From contig JAZTXY010000077.1 of assembly GCA_045636665.1 (NCBI GenBank), positions 1 through 59,483 of the forward strand: a stretch of DNA of 59,483 nt, written 5' to 3'. How positions within the stretch are numbered: the first letter of the stretch is position 1; every line of letters starts with the position of its first letter. The notes below the pieces were generated by a model. The model was not told where the DNA came from. It did not search any database and saw nothing but the letters and a program-made list of their open reading frames with translations. This document shows, piece by piece, positions 3,081-46,521 of the stretch. The position numbers were made by a program, and so were the translations under genes. Origin of the DNA: Eubacteriales bacterium (GTDB lineage Bacteria > Bacillota > Clostridia > Oscillospirales > CAG-382).

Positions 3081-4418
3081 ATGATCAACTTTAGATACAA
3101 GCAAGCGGAAAGCATTAAAGAATGCGATTTTTCCGCATTTGACGGTCTTCTTGCACAAGCGGATAAATACTTCCGCGAAAAGAGCGGCAAGGGCAACGAT
3201 TTTCTTGGCTGGCGCGACCTCGGTGTGCGCGTTGACAGCGAAGAATACGCTCGCATCAAGGCTTGTGCGGAACGCATCCGCAAAAACAGCGACGTGCTTT
3301 TGGTCGTTGGTATCGGCGGCTCTTACCTCGGCGCTCGCGCGGTCATCGAATACCTCAAAACACCCTATCACAACCAATTAAACGACGGCAACCCCGAAGT
3401 ATATTTCCTCGGCAACTCCTTCTCGGGTTGCGAGCTCAACACAGTTCTTAAGCTTTGCGAAGGCAAGCGTGTCAGCGTAAACGTTATCAGTAAATCGGGC
3501 ACTACCACCGAAAGCGCAGTTGCTTTCCGTATCCTCCGCGAATATATGGAATCGCGTTACGGCAAAAAGGAGGCGGCGGAAAGAACCGTTGCAACCACCG
3601 ATGCAAACCGCGGCGCACTTCTTTCTCTTGCGAAGCAGGAGGGTTACGAATGCTTCGTTATTCCCGATGACGTCGGCGGCAGATTCTCGGTGCTTACCGC
3701 AGTAGGCTTGCTTCCTGCGGCGGTTGCGGGCGTTGATACCGATGCACTTCTCAACGGCGCTTGCGATATGCGCGACTCGATTTTCGCATCGGGACTCGAC
3801 AACGCGGCTTACAAATATGCGGTGCTTCGCAACGTTATGCTTAAAATGGGCAAAACCAACGAGCTTTTGGTCAGCTATGACCCCGATTTCCGCTTTATGG
3901 GCGAATGGTTCAAGCAGCTGTTCGGCGAAAGCGAGGGCAAGGACAAGAAGGGACTTTTCCCTGCGTCGGTCACCTACAGCTCTGACCTCCACTCGCTCGG
4001 TCAGTTCGTTCAGGACGGCTCCCCCATTCTTTTCGAAACCATCGTACGCGCAGTAAATCCCGACCCCGATTCTCCCAAGATTCCCTTTGACGAGCAAAAC
4101 GGCGACGGACTCAATTTCTTAACCGGTATGTCGATGGACGATATTAACGAAAAGGCAATGCTCGGCACACTCCTCGCGCACCGCGACGGCGGTACGGAAA
4201 GCGTTATTATCGATTTCGGCGGCAAGGATGCATATTCCTTGGGCGAATTGATTTATTTCTTCTTCGCATCCTGCGCGGTTTCGGGTTATATTCTCGAGGT
4301 CAACCCCTTCGACCAACCCGGTGTGGAAGCATACAAAAAGAATATGTTTCGATTGCTCGGCAAGCCCGGTTATGATGCAGGCAAAGAAGAGCTTTTGAAA
4401 AAAATCGCGTCGATATAA
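3081..4418 (+). CDS. pgi: Glucose-6-phosphate isomerase
   Basis: GIGGSYLG, SKSGTTTE, VGGRFSVL, QLFGESEGK, DLHSLGQ and NPFDQPGVE motifs. Confidence 0.97.
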   Translation: MINFRYKQAESIKECDFSAFDGLLAQADKYFREKSGKGNDFLGWRDLGVRVDSEEYARIKACAERIRKNSDVLLVVGIGGSYLGARAVIEYLKTPYHNQLNDGNPEVYFLGNSFSGCELNTVLKLCEGKRVSVNVISKSGTTTESAVAFRILREYMESRYGKKEAAERTVATTDANRGALLSLAKQEGYECFVIPDDVGGRFSVLTAVGLLPAAVAGVDTDALLNGACDMRDSIFASGLDNAAYKYAVLRNVMLKMGKTNELLVSYDPDFRFMGEWFKQLFGESEGKDKKGLFPASVTYSSDLHSLGQFVQDGSPILFETIVRAVNPDPDSPKIPFDEQNGDGLNFLTGMSMDDINEKAMLGTLLAHRDGGTESVIIDFGGKDAYSLGELIYFFFASCAVSGYILEVNPFDQPGVEAYKKNMFRLLGKPGYDAGKEELLKKIASI

Positions 4419-6739: not shown

Positions 6740-7816
6740 ATGCAACGTATTTATAATTTTTCTGCAGGTCCTTCCATGCTCCCCGAATCGGTGCTTGAAC
6801 AAGCAGCAAAAGAAATGCTCAACTACAACGACAGCGGTATGTCGGTTATGGAAATGAGCCACCGCTCGCCCGTATACCAAGCGATTATCGACACTGCTGA
6901 AGCAGACCTTCGTCAATTGATGAACATTCCCGATAACTATAAGGTTCTTTTCCTTCAAGGCGGCGCTACCCAACAGTTTGCCGCTGTTCCCCTTAACCTT
7001 ATGAATAAAAACGGCAAAGCCGATTATATCGTTTCCGGTCAGTTTTCGAAAAAGGCGGCAGAAGAAGCCGCTAAATTCGGCGAAGTAAATATTATCGCAT
7101 CCTCCAAGGACAGAAACTTTGCTTACATCCCCAAGGTTGAAAGCTTCTCGCCCGATGCAGATTACGTTCACATCTGCTATAACAACACTATTTTCGGCAC
7201 CTGCTTTGACTATATCCCCGACACCGGCGATATCCCTCTTGTTGCCGATATGTCCTCGGGCATCCTTTCCCGTCCCGTTGACGTTTCGAAGTTCGGTCTT
7301 ATCTATGCGGGCGCTCAGAAGAATATGGGCCCCTCCGGTCTTACCGTTGTTATCGTACGCGAAGACCTTTTGGGCAACGCAAGAGAAAACATTCCCGTTA
7401 TGCTTAACTACACCGTTCAAGCTGAAAACGGCTCGATGTACAACACTCCTCCCTGCTATTCGATCTACGTTGCAGGTCTTGTATTCAAGTGGCTTTTGGC
7501 AACCGGCGGTCTTGAAGAACGCGAAAAGATCAACGTAAAGAAAGCAAACATTCTTTACGATTACCTCGACAACTCCAAGCTTTTCAAAGCAACCGCAGAT
7601 AAAGAAGTTCGTTCGCTTATGAACGTTTGCTTTGTAACCGGCGATGCCGACAAGGATAAGGCGTTTGTTTCGGCCGCATCCAAGGCAGGCTTTGTGAACC
7701 TTAAGGGTCACCGCGTTGTCGGCGGTATGCGCGCATCTATCTATAACGCAATGCCCGTTGAAGGTGTTGAAAAGCTGGTTCAGTTTATGGCTGATTACGA
7801 AAAGGAGAACGCATAA
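6740..7816 (+). CDS. serC: Phosphoserine aminotransferase
   Basis: YNFSAGP, MEMSHRS, GAQKNMGPSG (PLP lysine), YNTPP and GHRVVGGMRASIYNA. Confidence 0.97.
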   Translation: MQRIYNFSAGPSMLPESVLEQAAKEMLNYNDSGMSVMEMSHRSPVYQAIIDTAEADLRQLMNIPDNYKVLFLQGGATQQFAAVPLNLMNKNGKADYIVSGQFSKKAAEEAAKFGEVNIIASSKDRNFAYIPKVESFSPDADYVHICYNNTIFGTCFDYIPDTGDIPLVADMSSGILSRPVDVSKFGLIYAGAQKNMGPSGLTVVIVREDLLGNARENIPVMLNYTVQAENGSMYNTPPCYSIYVAGLVFKWLLATGGLEEREKINVKKANILYDYLDNSKLFKATADKEVRSLMNVCFVTGDADKDKAFVSAASKAGFVNLKGHRVVGGMRASIYNAMPVEGVEKLVQFMADYEKENA

Positions 7817-23870: not shown

Positions 23871-23876
23871 ATAATA

Positions 23877-23984
23877 TGTCTTCGGGGCAGGGTGAGATTC
23901 CCTACCGGCGGTACAGTCCGCGAGCGTTATGCACGATCCGGTGAAATTCCGGAACCGATCGTAAAGTCGAGATGAGAGAAGAAC
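23877..23984 (+). ncRNA. FMN riboswitch (RFN element) aptamer
   Basis: TCTTCGGGGCAGGGTGAGATTCCCTACCGGCGGT..AGTCCGCGA..GATCCGGTGAAATTCCGGAACCGA..AGTC..GATGAGAGAAGA matches the RFN consensus; upstream of an ECF S-component. Confidence 0.95.
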
Positions 23985-24021
23985 CTAATTTTCGGCATAT
24001 TGCCGCATTTTGTTGTTTTGC

Positions 24022-35970: not shown

Positions 35971-36271
35971 ACTTTCTCGGTAATACGATTTTGCGGTTTT
36001 CGACCTTGCTCGATTGACGGTAGATGACAACCTTTCTGCCGATAACCTGAACCGCTTCGCAATTAAGCGCCTGGCAAAGCGAAACCATTGCTTCCTTGGG
36101 TGTTTCGGGGCAGGTTTCGAGGATTGTAAGCTTTATAAGCTCGTGCGCCTCAAGCGCCTTTTCGACCGTTTCGATAAGCGTTTCGCCGATACCGAATTTA
36201 CCGATCTGAGTTGTCGGCTCTATTGTGTTTGCAAGCGAGCGAAGATATGCTCTTTGTTTTGTCGTAATCAT
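35969..36271 (-). CDS. yhbY: YhbY/CRM-domain RNA-binding protein
   Basis: KQRAYLRSLA, QIGKFG, HELIK and VQVIGRKVVIYR. Confidence 0.93.
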   Translation of the reverse strand: MITTKQRAYLRSLANTIEPTTQIGKFGIGETLIETVEKALEAHELIKLTILETCPETPKEAMVSLCQALNCEAVQVIGRKVVIYRQSSKVENRKIVLPRK

Positions 36272-36378
36272 TTTTCCCTCTTAATATGTTTTTTGCTATT
36301 TATGCGAAAGTGTCTTTTGAAAAAGCCACTCTCGCGCTCTCTTCAAAACTTTTTAATATAAATACAATAAATTTTCCA

Positions 36379-36531
36379 ATAAAAATCCGCGACAGGTGCA
36401 TGGATTTTTATACCTTGGGTGTCCGCAACCTTGGACAAGACGCTTTAGCGTCGCGCACAAGGTTGATGCGAATGTACGGACATCACAAAACCCATTGAAA
36501 TCCTCGGATTTCAATGGAGAGCGTTAGCGAC
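36379..36531. repeat. Structured intergenic element, copy 1 (REP/MITE-like or ncRNA)
   Basis: Shares invariant GATTTTTATACCTTG, GACAA, GCGCA, GATGCGAATG, ACAAAACCC and GAGAGCG..AGCGA with copy 2, with covarying stems. Confidence 0.85.
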
Positions 36532-36999
36532 TCATTTTTGGGGATTATCCGTGCTTCCGAATCCCCCGTGGCGTTCTTCACAGCACTCGTCATCCTCGGT
36601 GATGCCGTAAGGGAGAAAGATGCCTTGGGCAAAAGCATCGCCTGCACGCACGTTAAAGCATTTGCTTCCGCCGATAAGCTTTATTTTAATATGTCCTTCG
36701 TTGTCGGCATTGAAATAATCGGAATCGATAACGCCTGCGGTGTTCGCAAGACGCACGCCGTATTTAAAGCCCGAGCCGGAACGCGGCAAAATAACCAACA
36801 CCCAGCCCTCTGCTATTTTCGCGCGGATGCCTGTATCGATAATAATTTCTTCGCCCGAATCGAGTGTAAAATCATAGGGCGCGATAAAATCATATCCTGC
36901 CGACCCCGACGTTGCGCGACGCGGAAGGATTATATTTTCATATCCGTCGCGTCCGAACTGTTCCTTTGATACCTTATAAAACTTTGCAATACGGTTCAT
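36532..36999 (-). CDS. dut: Trimeric dUTP diphosphatase
   Basis: Motifs SAGYDF, PRSGSG, GVIDSDY, AQGIF and RHGGFGST. Confidence 0.95.
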   Translation of the reverse strand: MNRIAKFYKVSKEQFGRDGYENIILPRRATSGSAGYDFIAPYDFTLDSGEEIIIDTGIRAKIAEGWVLVILPRSGSGFKYGVRLANTAGVIDSDYFNADNEGHIKIKLIGGSKCFNVRAGDAFAQGIFLPYGITEDDECCEERHGGFGSTDNPQK

Positions 37000-37011
37000 A
37001 TTTTCTCCTTA

Positions 37012-37296
37012 TTACAACAGAAACTTCAATTCGAATTTTTCCCATACCTCGCAAAACGCTTTCTCATTGATATTAGCATTACAAATCAACTCATAAACGC
37101 TTTCGAAGCTTTGTTCACTATCCGATTTTTCATTTTGCCAAACCGAAACGTATTTTGCAGAGCCGCTTTTTGATATAAAATATGCCTTACCGTCAAAAAC
37201 GAACTCCAATTCTCTGCCGCCGTCGATTAAAAACATAAGCGCCGCTAAGGATTTTTTCTTAAACAACTCGTCGACTATAAGCTTATCAACTGCCAT
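37012..37296 (-). CDS. Small hypothetical protein (possible orphan immunity-type protein)
   Basis: GGAGG RBS, 94 aa, relatively AT-rich; GRELEFVFDGKAYFIS...FCEVWEKFEL. Confidence 0.7.
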   Translation of the reverse strand: MAVDKLIVDELFKKKSLAALMFLIDGGRELEFVFDGKAYFISKSGSAKYVSVWQNEKSDSEQSFESVYELICNANINEKAFCEVWEKFELKFLL

Positions 37297-37391
37297 AAAG
37301 CACCTCCGCGCGTTTGCTGAATAAAATCTTTGATTTTTTCACCTACACGCCGTTAACCTCAAAATGTACAGCATTTTTACAATAAACTCAT

Positions 37392-37576
37392 TATAAAAAT
37401 CGGGGACATGTGCCTCGATTTTTATACCTTGGAGTGCCGCGTGTTTGGACAAGCGAAGCGCGCACAAACACGATGCGAATGCACGGCACTCACAAAACCC
37501 CGCCGCGCGGGTATGGGGTCCCCGAAAATCGAATGATTTTTGGGGAGAGCGGAGCGATGTCGAAAGCGTCAGCGCC
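37392..37576. repeat. Structured intergenic element, copy 2 (REP/MITE-like or ncRNA)
   Basis: Same scaffold as 36379-36531; includes a GCGAAGC minihairpin and a CCCCGAAAATC/GATTTTTGGGG hairpin. Confidence 0.85.
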
Positions 37577-38296
37577 TTATCCTTGCCAACCTCCGTTGAC
37601 GTCGAAGACCGAGCCCGTGATATATTTTGCCTTGTCGGATGCCAAAAATGCAACGCATTCGGCAACCTCGTCGGAATTGCCAAGACGTCCGAGCGGAATT
37701 TCGTCGCAAAGAGAATCGATATCCTCAAAGGTGAGGTCCTCGTTCATATCGGTGTCGATAATGCCGGGGCAGACACAGTTAACGCGGATGCCTGCAGGTC
37801 CTACCTCCTTCGCAAGTGCCTTCGTAAAGCCGATGATACCCGATTTTGCCGTCGAATAATCGACCTCACAGCTTCCGCCAACCTCACCGAAAATCGATGA
37901 AATATTGATTATCACACCGCTTTTGCGGCTTATCATATTCGGCAAGATCTTACGCGAAAGATTTATCGGCGCAAAAAGGTTGATTTCGTACATTTTTCTT
38001 GCCGCTTCTTCGCTTATCGCATCGAACGGAAAGACCAAAGCAACGCCTGCGTTATTCACCAAAACGTCGACGTCCTTGCATTTTTCGGCAAGCTTTTCGA
38101 CCGATTCGGGGTCGGACAAATCGGCAGAAACGTATTCCGCGTCGCCAAGCTCGGCGCACAGCGATTTTGCCGCTTCGGCACTTTGATTGCAATGGATATA
38201 CAGATAAAATCCGTCACGCGAGAGCGCACGGCAGATCGATTCGCCGATTCCTCTTGCACCACCCGTAACAAGTGCGGTTTTTTTATTATTTTTCAT
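37577..38296 (-). CDS. FabG-like short-chain dehydrogenase, YmfI (EF-P 5-aminopentanone reductase)-like
   Basis: TGGARGIG, NNAG, SSIFGEVGGSCEVDYSTAK (YxxxK) and VNGGW. Confidence 0.85.
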   Translation of the reverse strand: MKNNKKTALVTGGARGIGESICRALSRDGFYLYIHCNQSAEAAKSLCAELGDAEYVSADLSDPESVEKLAEKCKDVDVLVNNAGVALVFPFDAISEEAARKMYEINLFAPINLSRKILPNMISRKSGVIINISSIFGEVGGSCEVDYSTAKSGIIGFTKALAKEVGPAGIRVNCVCPGIIDTDMNEDLTFEDIDSLCDEIPLGRLGNSDEVAECVAFLASDKAKYITGSVFDVNGGWQG

Positions 38297-39176
38297 TGTT
38301 TTTCTCAACGATCTTAAGCAGATGCTTTAAATCACTTTTCGAATATTTGTAAACCTCATCGCAGAAGCTGCAGGTCATTTCGGTAACCTCATCGCCGTTT
38401 TCGATCATATCGGTCAGTTCTCTTGCGCCGAGCGAAATAAGCGCATTATCGGTCTTTTCGCGACTGCAGACGCATTTATATTCGCATTCGATCTCGTCGA
38501 AAAGGTCATATTCAATGCCGTCGAGCACCTCGGCAAGCACGTCTTCAAGAGTGCCCTCCGAAAGAATTTTTGTAATAGGACGCATTTTTGCCGCGTTTTG
38601 CTCTAATTTTTCGGCAACCTCATCGTCATAAAAAGGAAGCAGCTGAATAAGCGCGCCGCCTGCGCGGAGAACCGTATAATCTCTGTCGACAAGCACACCG
38701 AGGGCGCAAACCGTGGGGATTTGCTCACTCGTTGCATAGTAATAGGCAATATCGTCGCCGACTTCGCCCGTTTGTATTTTTGAAATGCCGACGTAGGGCT
38801 CGCTTCCGCCCGCATCGCGCAAAATGTAAAGCTCGCCTTGACCGATGCATCCGCCTACGTCCAATTTACCGTCGGCGCGGAGAGGAAGGTCGGCAGACGG
38901 ATTTTGGATAAATCCGCGCACGTTACCGCACCAGTCGCTTGTTGCAACAACGCTTCCGCCAACACCGTCGCCCTTAAAGCGAATGGTTATAACGTCTTCC
39001 TTTTCGCCAAGCATCGAGCCTGCAAGCGAAGTCGCAAGCAGAGTTCTGCCCAATGCGGCGGTCGCAACGGGAGTTGTGTTGTGTATCTGACGCGCGCGCT
39101 CAACAATATCGCGTCCGTCCAATATAATGGCTCTTGCCGAGCCGTCCTTTGTCATTGCTCTTATAATTCTTGCCAT
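38286..39176 (-). CDS. hslO: Hsp33 redox-regulated chaperone
   Basis: ALGRTL, GKLDVG, SEQIP and the C-terminal CxC...CxxC (CVC, CSFC). Confidence 0.95.
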   Translation of the reverse strand: MARIIRAMTKDGSARAIILDGRDIVERARQIHNTTPVATAALGRTLLATSLAGSMLGEKEDVITIRFKGDGVGGSVVATSDWCGNVRGFIQNPSADLPLRADGKLDVGGCIGQGELYILRDAGGSEPYVGISKIQTGEVGDDIAYYYATSEQIPTVCALGVLVDRDYTVLRAGGALIQLLPFYDDEVAEKLEQNAAKMRPITKILSEGTLEDVLAEVLDGIEYDLFDEIECEYKCVCSREKTDNALISLGARELTDMIENGDEVTEMTCSFCDEVYKYSKSDLKHLLKIVEKNNEK

Positions 39177-46177: not shown

Positions 46178-46210
46178 AAGAAACCGCGTTTGTCACGCGG
46201 TTTCTTTTTT
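46178..46210 (+). terminator. Intrinsic terminator of nagB
   Basis: AAGAAACCGCG-TTTGTCA-CGCGGTTTCTT followed by a long T-tract. Confidence 0.8.
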
Positions 46211-46236
46211 GTTTTTTTATTGTATTTTTTTGTTCT

Positions 46237-46385
46237 TTGCACAAAAAATCCCATCGCAGTAGATTACTACAGCTTCGGGATTTATTTGCGCAATCTGCGT
46301 CCAATCCTGCATCCCCTCCGCTTCGATTCATTTGGGGCGTTAAACTCCTCCACCATTTCACGGGGCGCATGTCCCCGATTTTTAT
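46237..46385. repeat. Palindromic intergenic element sharing a 25-nt end with the 37392 element
   Basis: Long imperfect hairpin at 46237-46293; 46361-46385 matches the reverse complement of 37393-37417 at 23/25 positions. Confidence 0.6.
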
Positions 46386-46521
46386 GAAATTTCAATTATA
46401 AAGCCGCGTTTTTACGCGGCTTTGTTTTTTAGCGTTTTTTGTTGCAAAAGCAACGAAGTCTTTCTCGTTTTTTGGGTATAATATAATAACAAAGGGATAC
46501 TAAAGCAAGGAGGCGCTAAAT

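Follow-up and report, generated by a model that had tools for sequence, protein, structure and literature searches.

What is the structured non-coding sequence that occurs twice between positions 36379 and 37576 of contig JAZTXY010000077.1 (Eubacteriales bacterium, assembly GCA_045636665.1), each time touching the stop codon of a minus-strand gene, and how did it come to lie there? The contig was analysed over its whole length of 59,483 nucleotides (hereafter the window), and the two segments (copy a, 36379-36531; copy b, 37392-37576) had been described in a first-pass annotation as diverged copies of a multi-stem element, either a non-autonomous mobile palindromic repeat or a structured motif of 3′ untranslated regions. 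Our analysis shows that they belong to a dispersed family that inserts, being present, absent or reduced to a remnant at the same site in close species. With some reservation, we consider it probable that this family of intergenic, structured repeats, each about 170-220 bp long, is mobile but non-autonomous and that it is specific to one clade of uncultured Oscillospiraceae-like Clostridia of the gut, diverged relatives occurring elsewhere in the order.

Throughout, the plus strand is the strand that reads from a TAnAAT box through a hairpin (H1), a branched junction and a second hairpin (D) to an end motif; the order of parts from left to right is TAnAAT box, H1, three-way junction, A-rich linker, hairpin D and GAGAGCGnnAGCGA end. 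Copies a and b share this one scaffold and align at 78% column identity, with identical unpaired parts and stem arms that differ on both sides, and every motif quoted for them was recovered at its place. A 29-nt pattern that runs from the mini-hairpin of the junction through the 3′ arm of stem A into the A-rich linker is present twice in the window; 100 shuffles gave an expectation of 0.

Gain and loss at orthologous sites

A covariance model (R1) built from 16 full copies gave 24 matches in the window genome and nhmmer gave 30; with BLAST also used, the count is 24-30 copies in a genome of 1.8 Mb that is 80% complete (all genomes considered here are metagenome bins). Matches were found in 13 of the 24 other species of the genus, of which 11 carry 12-33 copies, one carries 2 and one carries 1, and the covariance model found no element in the other 11 species, including genomes that are 95-98% complete. 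Carriage coincides with a Dut protein at least 79% identical to that of the window, and the element family therefore marks a sub-clade. Among other genomes of the order, searched with stricter filters, weaker matches (37-82 bits) were obtained in 8 of 150, from another genus of the same family and from three other families; these distant relatives retain the TAnAAT box, the 9-10-nt spacing and an H1 with the loop GACAUGCGC. Public genomes scanned for the pattern yielded hits solely in uncultured bins titled Oscillospiraceae, Eubacteriales or Clostridia bacterium, or Ruminococcus sp., and the titles of many of them mention herbivore gut samples. One public bin holds five element copies in tandem array (L190, about 6900-7750).

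No named family had been recognised in the sequence, and this view stands: Rfam 15 left the element unmatched when the whole window was searched at gathering score, and a search of region 36250-37650 with E up to 10 produced two chance-level matches of 17 bits. A search of the main text of articles found no description of the element family.

Comparison of orthologous junctions revealed empty sites at dut, at the short-chain dehydrogenase (SDR) gene and at further loci. Between dut and the gene that follows it, which encodes a YhbY/CRS1-domain protein, seven species have a spacer of only 8-25 nt (G019, G002, G042, G013, G022, G011 and G009), five species have other, unrelated repeats and seven have the element. 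The seven dut-site copies differ in H1 type, stem A, stem B and D type amid flanking non-coding DNA that is alike, which points to exchange between copies or repeated replacement. The dut-yhbY junction is a hotspot for several repeat families. The spacers of L079 (G016) and L082 (G014) contain a different repeat of about 75 nt (AACGTAAAAAACGTACCGATTAGTAT...CACGCGGTGTGTCGG), present as three tandem copies in G016 and as one in G014.

At the SDR site, the locus of copy b, a clean 10-nt spacer is found in G045 and G023, a full copy in G018, and remnants in G003 (left end only) and G005 (right end only). When the flanks of copies from other genomes were searched against the window genome, further empty sites and remnants were detected, and at three independent sites the remnant consists of the box and the 5′ arm of H1, with everything lost up to the right end. 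We infer that copies swap modules and undergo hairpin-bounded deletions.

Long direct repeats of the target accompany part of the family. Flanking direct repeats of at least 30 nt were observed for 18 of 136 distinct full copies, compared with 1 of 403 mismatched left/right pairs. With cases made of element parts or of other repeats set aside, at least nine loci are left at which the duplicated sequence is unique and its right copy begins at most 7 nt past the end motif (four more are less clean; about ten overall), the lengths at the nine loci being 106, 71-76, 64-68, 64, 43, 37, 34, 32 and 31 nt and the overall range 29-106 bp. In most duplications the right copy begins directly past the end motif, while the left copy ends anywhere from 34 nt before to 28 nt after the start of the TAnAAT region; the element thus has an exact right end and a fuzzy left end. 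The first 21-50 nt of the downstream gene, together with its ribosome-binding region, are part of four duplications; the insertion therefore struck the gene start, and the duplication restored it. At two duplicated loci the segment is single at the orthologous site in the window genome. At L188 a 76-nt direct pair was confirmed by a repeat search, and the insert of about 175 nt whose ends it defines has no terminal inverted repeat, only internal hairpins. Arrays consisting of target piece plus element, twice over, also occur, as expected of unequal exchange between such duplications.

The core fold is under selection on one strand

The first-pass annotation had taken compensatory change in the two copies as the signature of selection on a folded single strand, and the wider family bears this out. 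In the 16 copies behind the model, changes on both sides have left pairing intact at 21 of 29 predicted pairs. A set of 95 copies from other genomes has double changes at 25 of the 29 pairs (620 cells), and 98.2% of its cells are standard pairs. Column shuffles gave 75.1%, and none of 500 attained the observed value, a large margin notwithstanding that the alignment was fitted to the model, which favours structure, and that the shuffles ignore relatedness. As a control, the partners were slid by 1-3 columns, and pairing fell to 30-49%. In H1, four A-T pairs are flipped to T-A en bloc in 33 of the 95 copies.

The pairs also tell the two strands apart. G·U combinations on the plus strand number 138 (72 of them in one conserved H1 column), against 12 A·C combinations, which would be G·U on the opposite strand; without that column the figures are 66 and 12. 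Among 119 copies, predicted stability favours the plus strand for the whole unit in 105 and for the core in 107, and copy a folds more stably than its shuffles with z = -6.1 on the plus strand and -4.7 on the minus strand. Because G·U far outnumbers A·C and the plus strand is the more stable, the core folds on the strand antisense to the adjoining genes, and it is there that its fold is under selection. The D region lacks the plus-strand bias, 49 of 119 copies favouring the plus strand and 70 of 119 the minus strand.

The TAnAAT box, mostly TACAAT or TATAAT, stands 9-10 nt ahead of H1 in nearly all of 92 copies, with A at position 2 and T at position 6 mostly kept. H1 is a hairpin of 14 bp with arms of A/T-runs, a G+C top and one bulged A; its loop is near-invariant across the family as GACATGCGC, that of copy a deviating, and a G·T pair within the G+C part of the stem is retained in most copies. 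A linker (ACCTTRG) leads from H1 to stem A, whose 8 pairs close the three-way junction, and stem B (5-7 pairs) bears either a conserved 5x5 internal loop with an apical hairpin or a shorter variant. The segment GATGCGAATG, initially read as an unpaired bulge, is instead a mini-hairpin of 2 pairs around an invariant GCGA tetraloop (AT-GCGA-AT in the window copies, GC-GCGA-GC in most other copies). The A-rich linker follows (family form CACAAAACC), then hairpin D, which comes in a few recurring types, each having an A-run on its 5′ side and a T-run on its 3′ side, and finally the end motif, GAGAGCG-n(1-3)-AGCG(A). At L188 the mini-hairpin region (TTGGCGCGAGCGAA, 4091-4104) and the end motif (TTGGGGAGAGCGAA, 4148-4161) resemble each other, forming a direct repeat inside the element, and both regions may be bound by one protein.

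In the window, the motifs of both copies stand as originally placed, but the left edge had to be moved, since each unit begins earlier, at a TACAAT box. That of copy a (36363-36368, plus strand) is -10-like and lies 10 nt ahead of H1, with the same spacing in distant relatives; that of copy b is at 37378-37383 (plus strand), both boxes falling within the 9-10 nt typical of the family. The remaining parts of copy a, all on the plus strand, are H1 (36379-36411), the three-way junction (36418-36484), the A-rich linker ACAAAACCC (36485-36493), the variable hairpin D (36492-36517) and the end motif GAGAGCGTTAGCGA(C) (36517-36531). Its junction is formed by stem A (36418-36425/36477-36484) and stem B (36427-36433/36458-36464, with the 5x5 internal loop), the apical hairpin occupying 36439-36452 and the GCGA-tetraloop mini-hairpin 36466-36473. 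On the gene strand the linker is a T-run after the D hairpin, and D itself is terminator-like on that minus strand; the end motif makes the precise right end and contains TAA in its reverse complement.

Copy b, likewise on the plus strand, has H1 at 37393-37425 and a three-way junction at 37432-37491, with stem A at 37432-37439/37484-37491, stem B at 37441-37447/37465-37471, a GCGAAGC apical mini-hairpin at 37453-37459 and the AT-GCGA-AT hairpin at 37473-37480. In the D position it has a short G+C hairpin (37499-37511), terminator-like on the minus strand with a T-run from 37492-37500, followed by an embedded small REP-like hairpin (37515-37545) that belongs to a second repeat family, the end motif GAGAGCGGAGCGA (37545-37557) and a second end piece (37560-37576). 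Both of the copies first described are real, and the window holds a third, truncated one on the minus strand (46360-46403), which comprises only a TATAAT box, the 5′ arm of H1, the loop and the G+C part of the 3′ arm.

A box of this kind ahead of an antisense fold is what an antisense small-RNA gene family would have: the TAnAAT would be its own -10 box, transcription would start from the foot of H1, and the RNA would run convergently into the 3′ end of the upstream gene or act in trans via a C/A-rich single strand. The folded strand is indeed antisense to the genes, the box spacing is retained in nearly all of the 92 copies and in distant relatives, and the invariant GCGA (GNRA) tetraloop with its covarying closing pairs and the conserved internal loops suit an RNA tertiary fold. 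Nevertheless, we regard this explanation as doubtful. Only the -10-like hexamer is conserved, without a conserved -35 or TG extension, and a two-hexamer scan for sigma-70 promoters (-35 and -10 hexamers spaced by 16-18 nt) returned no site at either box (36363 or 37378); on the plus strand no terminator lies downstream. Copies are moreover gained, lost and truncated among close species, none being syntenically fixed across the genus, and the target duplications represent insertion events, in several of which the inserted unit includes the box at its outermost margin.

Placement at gene 3′ ends

Copies lie at the 3′ ends of genes in a fixed orientation, and often they reach the stop codon itself. 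Neighbouring open reading frames (ORFs) were scored by a codon-usage model trained on the window genome for 153 distinct full copies, 125 of them scorable; the right neighbour was convergent in 114, co-directional in 11 and unscorable in 28, so that the right end meets a gene 3′ end in 114 of 125 copies. Tandem-gene contexts were divided 59 versus 7, 24 copies lie in convergent gene pairs, and divergent promoter regions account for 3. The commonest gap between the end of the model and the stop codon, 27-36 nt, corresponds to the D hairpin plus the end motif, and further modes match one or two extra small hairpins. In 72 of 138 copies the first TTA, CTA or TCA begins 0-4 nt past the end motif.

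The two window copies conform to this placement, as had been claimed for them from the outset. Copy a adjoins the stop codon of a gene identified by Pfam as a dUTPase (dut, 36532-36999, minus strand), and the second end piece of copy b adjoins that of a short-chain dehydrogenase gene, again by Pfam (37577-38308, minus strand), the reverse-complement stop codons beginning at 36532 and 37577, respectively, 0-1 nt past the element. In three species the dut reading frame runs past its usual end and stops at TAA or TGA inside the end motif (G005, G043) or at TGA just before it (G018). A stop codon inside the end motif was considered as a general feature and rejected, TTA or TCA being present in the spacer of only 32 of 138 motifs. 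Replication-linked orientation was likewise dismissed: GC skew is weak and unrelated to orientation (8 versus 12 copies), and where one contig has copies in both orientations, these accord with the local genes.

On the gene strand, the unit reads as the reverse complement of the D hairpin followed by GGTTTTGTG, and a consensus scan classed this arrangement as terminator-like in both window copies. Sites on the gene strand that combine a G+C-containing hairpin with a T-run, as predicted by consensus for intrinsic terminators, number 5 in the region, against 1.5 expected. A cis-acting gene-end cassette on the sense strand could account for such features, with the D hairpin and T-run, and then H1 with a T-rich tail, terminating transcription of the upstream gene and stabilising its mRNA, as REP/BIME or SPRITE do, and with that function being what is selected. 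The 114 of 125 scorable copies that face a gene 3′ end, the stop-codon triplets close to the end motif in 72 of 138, the terminator-like sites of both window copies, the slightly greater stability of D on the gene strand (70 versus 49 of 119) and the dut frames that stop inside the end motif are all in its favour. The core, however, pairs better on the other strand (138 G·U against 12 A·C; 107 of 119 copies), the swap of A-run and T-run in H1 removes the gene-strand T-tail in 33 of 95 copies, and a 60-nt three-way junction with conserved loops would be superfluous for termination. On balance we find a cassette of this kind unlikely. The same evidence bears on the structured 3′ untranslated motif that had been offered as the alternative to a mobile element: the core, which pairs best antisense to the adjoining genes, makes it less likely, and only the D hairpin with its T-run is terminator-like in the sense of the gene.

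Several companion repeats were encountered alongside the element. Small REP-like hairpins (GGGGTCCCCGAAAA-n-TTTTTGGGG) gave 38 pattern matches on either strand, at about 33 places of the window genome; they have a conserved G·T pair on the same strand as the main element, and they either follow element copies or are inserted inside them at the mini-hairpin or the H1 loop, copy b holding one. A module of the form TTTTGAAAAAGCC...CTCTCGCGCTCTC...TTCAAAAC lies just left of copy a (36314-36350, plus strand) and has about 12 more copies in the genome, some beside the element and some alone; it may provide the downstream gene with a promoter or leader. A third structured repeat, a long hairpin (...GATGCAGATTGTGCAAA...CCGAAGCTGTAGAAATCTACTGCGAG...), is found at about 46200-46350 on the minus strand of the window and in L056, L058, L070 and L126, and often adjoins the main element.

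Pfam gave no match for a 94-aa ORF (37012-37296, minus strand) between the dehydrogenase gene and dut; G000, G045 and G023 have this ORF, and G003, G005 and G018 lack it. A decayed duplicate of the SDR 3′ end to the left of copy b was considered and judged not significant. Elsewhere in the window, an FMN riboswitch (RF00050, 104 bits) at 23874-23987 on the plus strand is the sole Rfam family at gathering score.

Mobilisation and the known repeat classes

If the family is a non-autonomous mobile repeat, its features would be accommodated by strand-specific copy-and-paste that starts or ends exactly at the right end (the D hairpin plus GAGAGCGnnAGCGA). The process would read a folded single strand, either single-stranded DNA or RNA; H1 with its invariant loop would be a putative protein recognition site, the right end would be recognised too, and the enzyme would be supplied in trans. 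Selection would then filter the survivors to gene 3′ ends, in the orientation in which the D hairpin and T-run can terminate the upstream gene. A more specific version, in which a transposase-independent or novel target-primed process begins at the precise 3′ end of the folded strand (RNA or single-stranded DNA) and copies it into breaks that are staggered by 30-100 bp and lie close to gene boundaries, as a bacterial counterpart of SINE-type retroposition or by a new HUH-like mechanism, is speculative, and we would give it a rather small chance of being correct.

A number of observations weigh against a mobile repeat. No long duplication was found for 118 of 136 copies, nor for any of five 5′-truncated copies that were examined; the latter had been candidates for truncation at insertion, a proposal that was dropped with 0 of 5 showing a duplication and two being disrupted full copies. 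With metagenome bins as the material, an assembly artefact could lie behind the duplications, but is unlikely given the unique flanks in orthologous pairs (L169/L211; L195/C85). Nearly all copies retain their pairing (98%), which is more than decaying selfish copies would be expected to show and may reflect selection on each locus or steady gene conversion. Copies of one genome are mostly 72-85% identical (one 75-nt stretch reaches 98.7%); at that divergence they are old and do not demonstrate recent activity in the window genome. Nor did a mobilising enzyme emerge from the 31 genomes of the genus, where genes for reverse transcriptases, DDE transposases and Y1 proteins fail to track the element. 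RVT_1 occurs in 7 of the 31 genomes and is absent from G000, G003, G005, G023 and the 96%-complete G013; RVT_1 genes were never found beside a copy, nor element parts near the reverse transcriptase genes. DDE_Tnp_1, searched with the Pfam model PF01609, occurs in 2 of 31 genomes, none in the element clade. Y1_Tnp occurs in 9 of 31, inside and outside the clade and without tracking the element, and the Y1_Tnp of G000 is an 86-aa N-terminal fragment unlinked to copies. Bins are incomplete and prone to losing mobile genes, so that the absence of an enzyme is weak evidence.

The mobile part of the original proposal is supported by the dispersed copies, by the filled, empty and remnant orthologous sites and by the long target duplications, but the label 'REP/MITE-like' does not hold strictly, there being no terminal inverted repeats (in the one insert with defined ends), no fixed short duplication and no RAYT/Y1 that tracks the element. 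REP/BIME and REPIN with RAYT (Y1 HUH; mainly Proteobacteria) are alike in being dispersed extragenic palindromes at gene 3′ ends with compensatory hairpins and a strand-specific fold; they are also non-coding, modular and often arrayed, and a second, REP-sized hairpin family co-occurs with the present element. The present unit is, however, five times longer (170-220 nt, against an imperfect palindrome of 20-40 nt in REP/REPIN), contains a three-way junction and lacks the GTAG/CGTC tag of REP elements, and whereas REPINs make no target duplication, it has long ones of 29-106 bp. IS200/IS605-derived PATEs have subterminal hairpins and insert beside a fixed tetra- or pentanucleotide, without duplication and with TnpA present. 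The geometry of the present element is in keeping with this, since hairpins are found close to each end and the distance between the TAnAAT box and H1 is fixed; the duplications do not fit this class, and TnpA does not track the element.

Among Gram-positive repeats, pneumococcal BOX and SPRITE, for which we know of no dedicated transposase, are reportedly modular composite intergenic Firmicutes repeats of 100-200 bp with stable folds, SPRITE being terminator-like at gene ends (Croucher et al. 2011). The present element differs from both, as compared by description only, in a core that folds on the strand opposite to the gene and in long, variable target duplications. The bcr repeats of the Bacillus cereus group are interspersed repeats of 100-400 bp, some with conserved folds and compensatory changes and some mobile; bcr1 has a short fixed TTTAT duplication and inverted ends, neither of which is found in the present element. 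Three further classes were dropped on anatomy. Integron attC sites, single imperfect hairpins with R/L boxes that occur in cassette arrays with an integrase, do not match a branched fold in copies dispersed beside housekeeping genes. A plasmid single-strand origin (ssoA), which carries a TAGCG-like loop, does not match a branched fold whose orientation follows genes, not replication. Targeting of terminators by group IIC introns does not agree with a D hairpin that lies inside the unit, as it must since the end motif and the duplications lie beyond D.

Long duplications bring two enzyme classes into consideration. In an RNA-mediated, SINE-like retroposon, a reverse transcriptase would recognise the D hairpin and end motif of the plus-strand transcript and copy it with a nicked target as primer. 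Such a retroposon would match the junctions, which as in non-LTR and SINE-like elements combine a precise 3′ junction, a variable 5′ end and duplications of variable length (29-106 bp), and the one-strand fold rich in G·U pairs would suit it as well. Against this, the distribution of RVT_1 does not follow that of the element: G013, which is 96% complete and holds 19 copies, lacks it, and no RVT_1 gene adjoins a copy. Further, none of five truncated copies has a duplication, and the TAnAAT box within the inserted unit cannot be the promoter of the copied RNA. We hold such a retroposon to be very unlikely.

The other class is that of DDE transposases. IS1549 and IS1634 produce long, variable direct repeats of the target of 8-514 bp (PMC2266710), and a MITE mobilised in trans by a transposase of this type would make duplications of the same order as those seen here. 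These insertion sequences are autonomous and have inverted ends, whereas the present element has no ORF, no terminal inverted repeats (in one insert) and a duplication length that varies, unlike a typical MITE; DDE_Tnp_1 was found in only two of the 31 genomes, neither in the element clade, and a strand-specific fold with G·T pairs is atypical of DDE ends. The likelihood of this route is therefore slight in the extreme. Replitron-1, a eukaryotic HUH Rep transposon, combines orientation-specific insertion, one fuzzy end, variable-length duplications and a terminal hairpin (PMC10288648), but is autonomous with short duplications, and no Rep gene is linked to the present element. Neither IS1634/IS1549 nor Replitron-1 fits fully as a precedent for the long or variable duplications.

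The feature set as a whole, namely a large branched fold on the antisense strand, one precise end in contact with stop codons and one that is fuzzy, long target duplications of variable length and no tracking transposase, fits no described mobilisation route, and if the mechanism is indeed new, it would represent an additional class of bacterial mobile DNA. Folded gene-end repeats have been known from a few cultured model bacteria, and the present family comes from uncultured gut Clostridia, where a covariance model of the element would aid the annotation of thousands of metagenome-assembled genomes. These repeats break assemblies, and they reshape operon junctions by duplicating gene starts, supplying stop codons and adding terminator-like hairpins.

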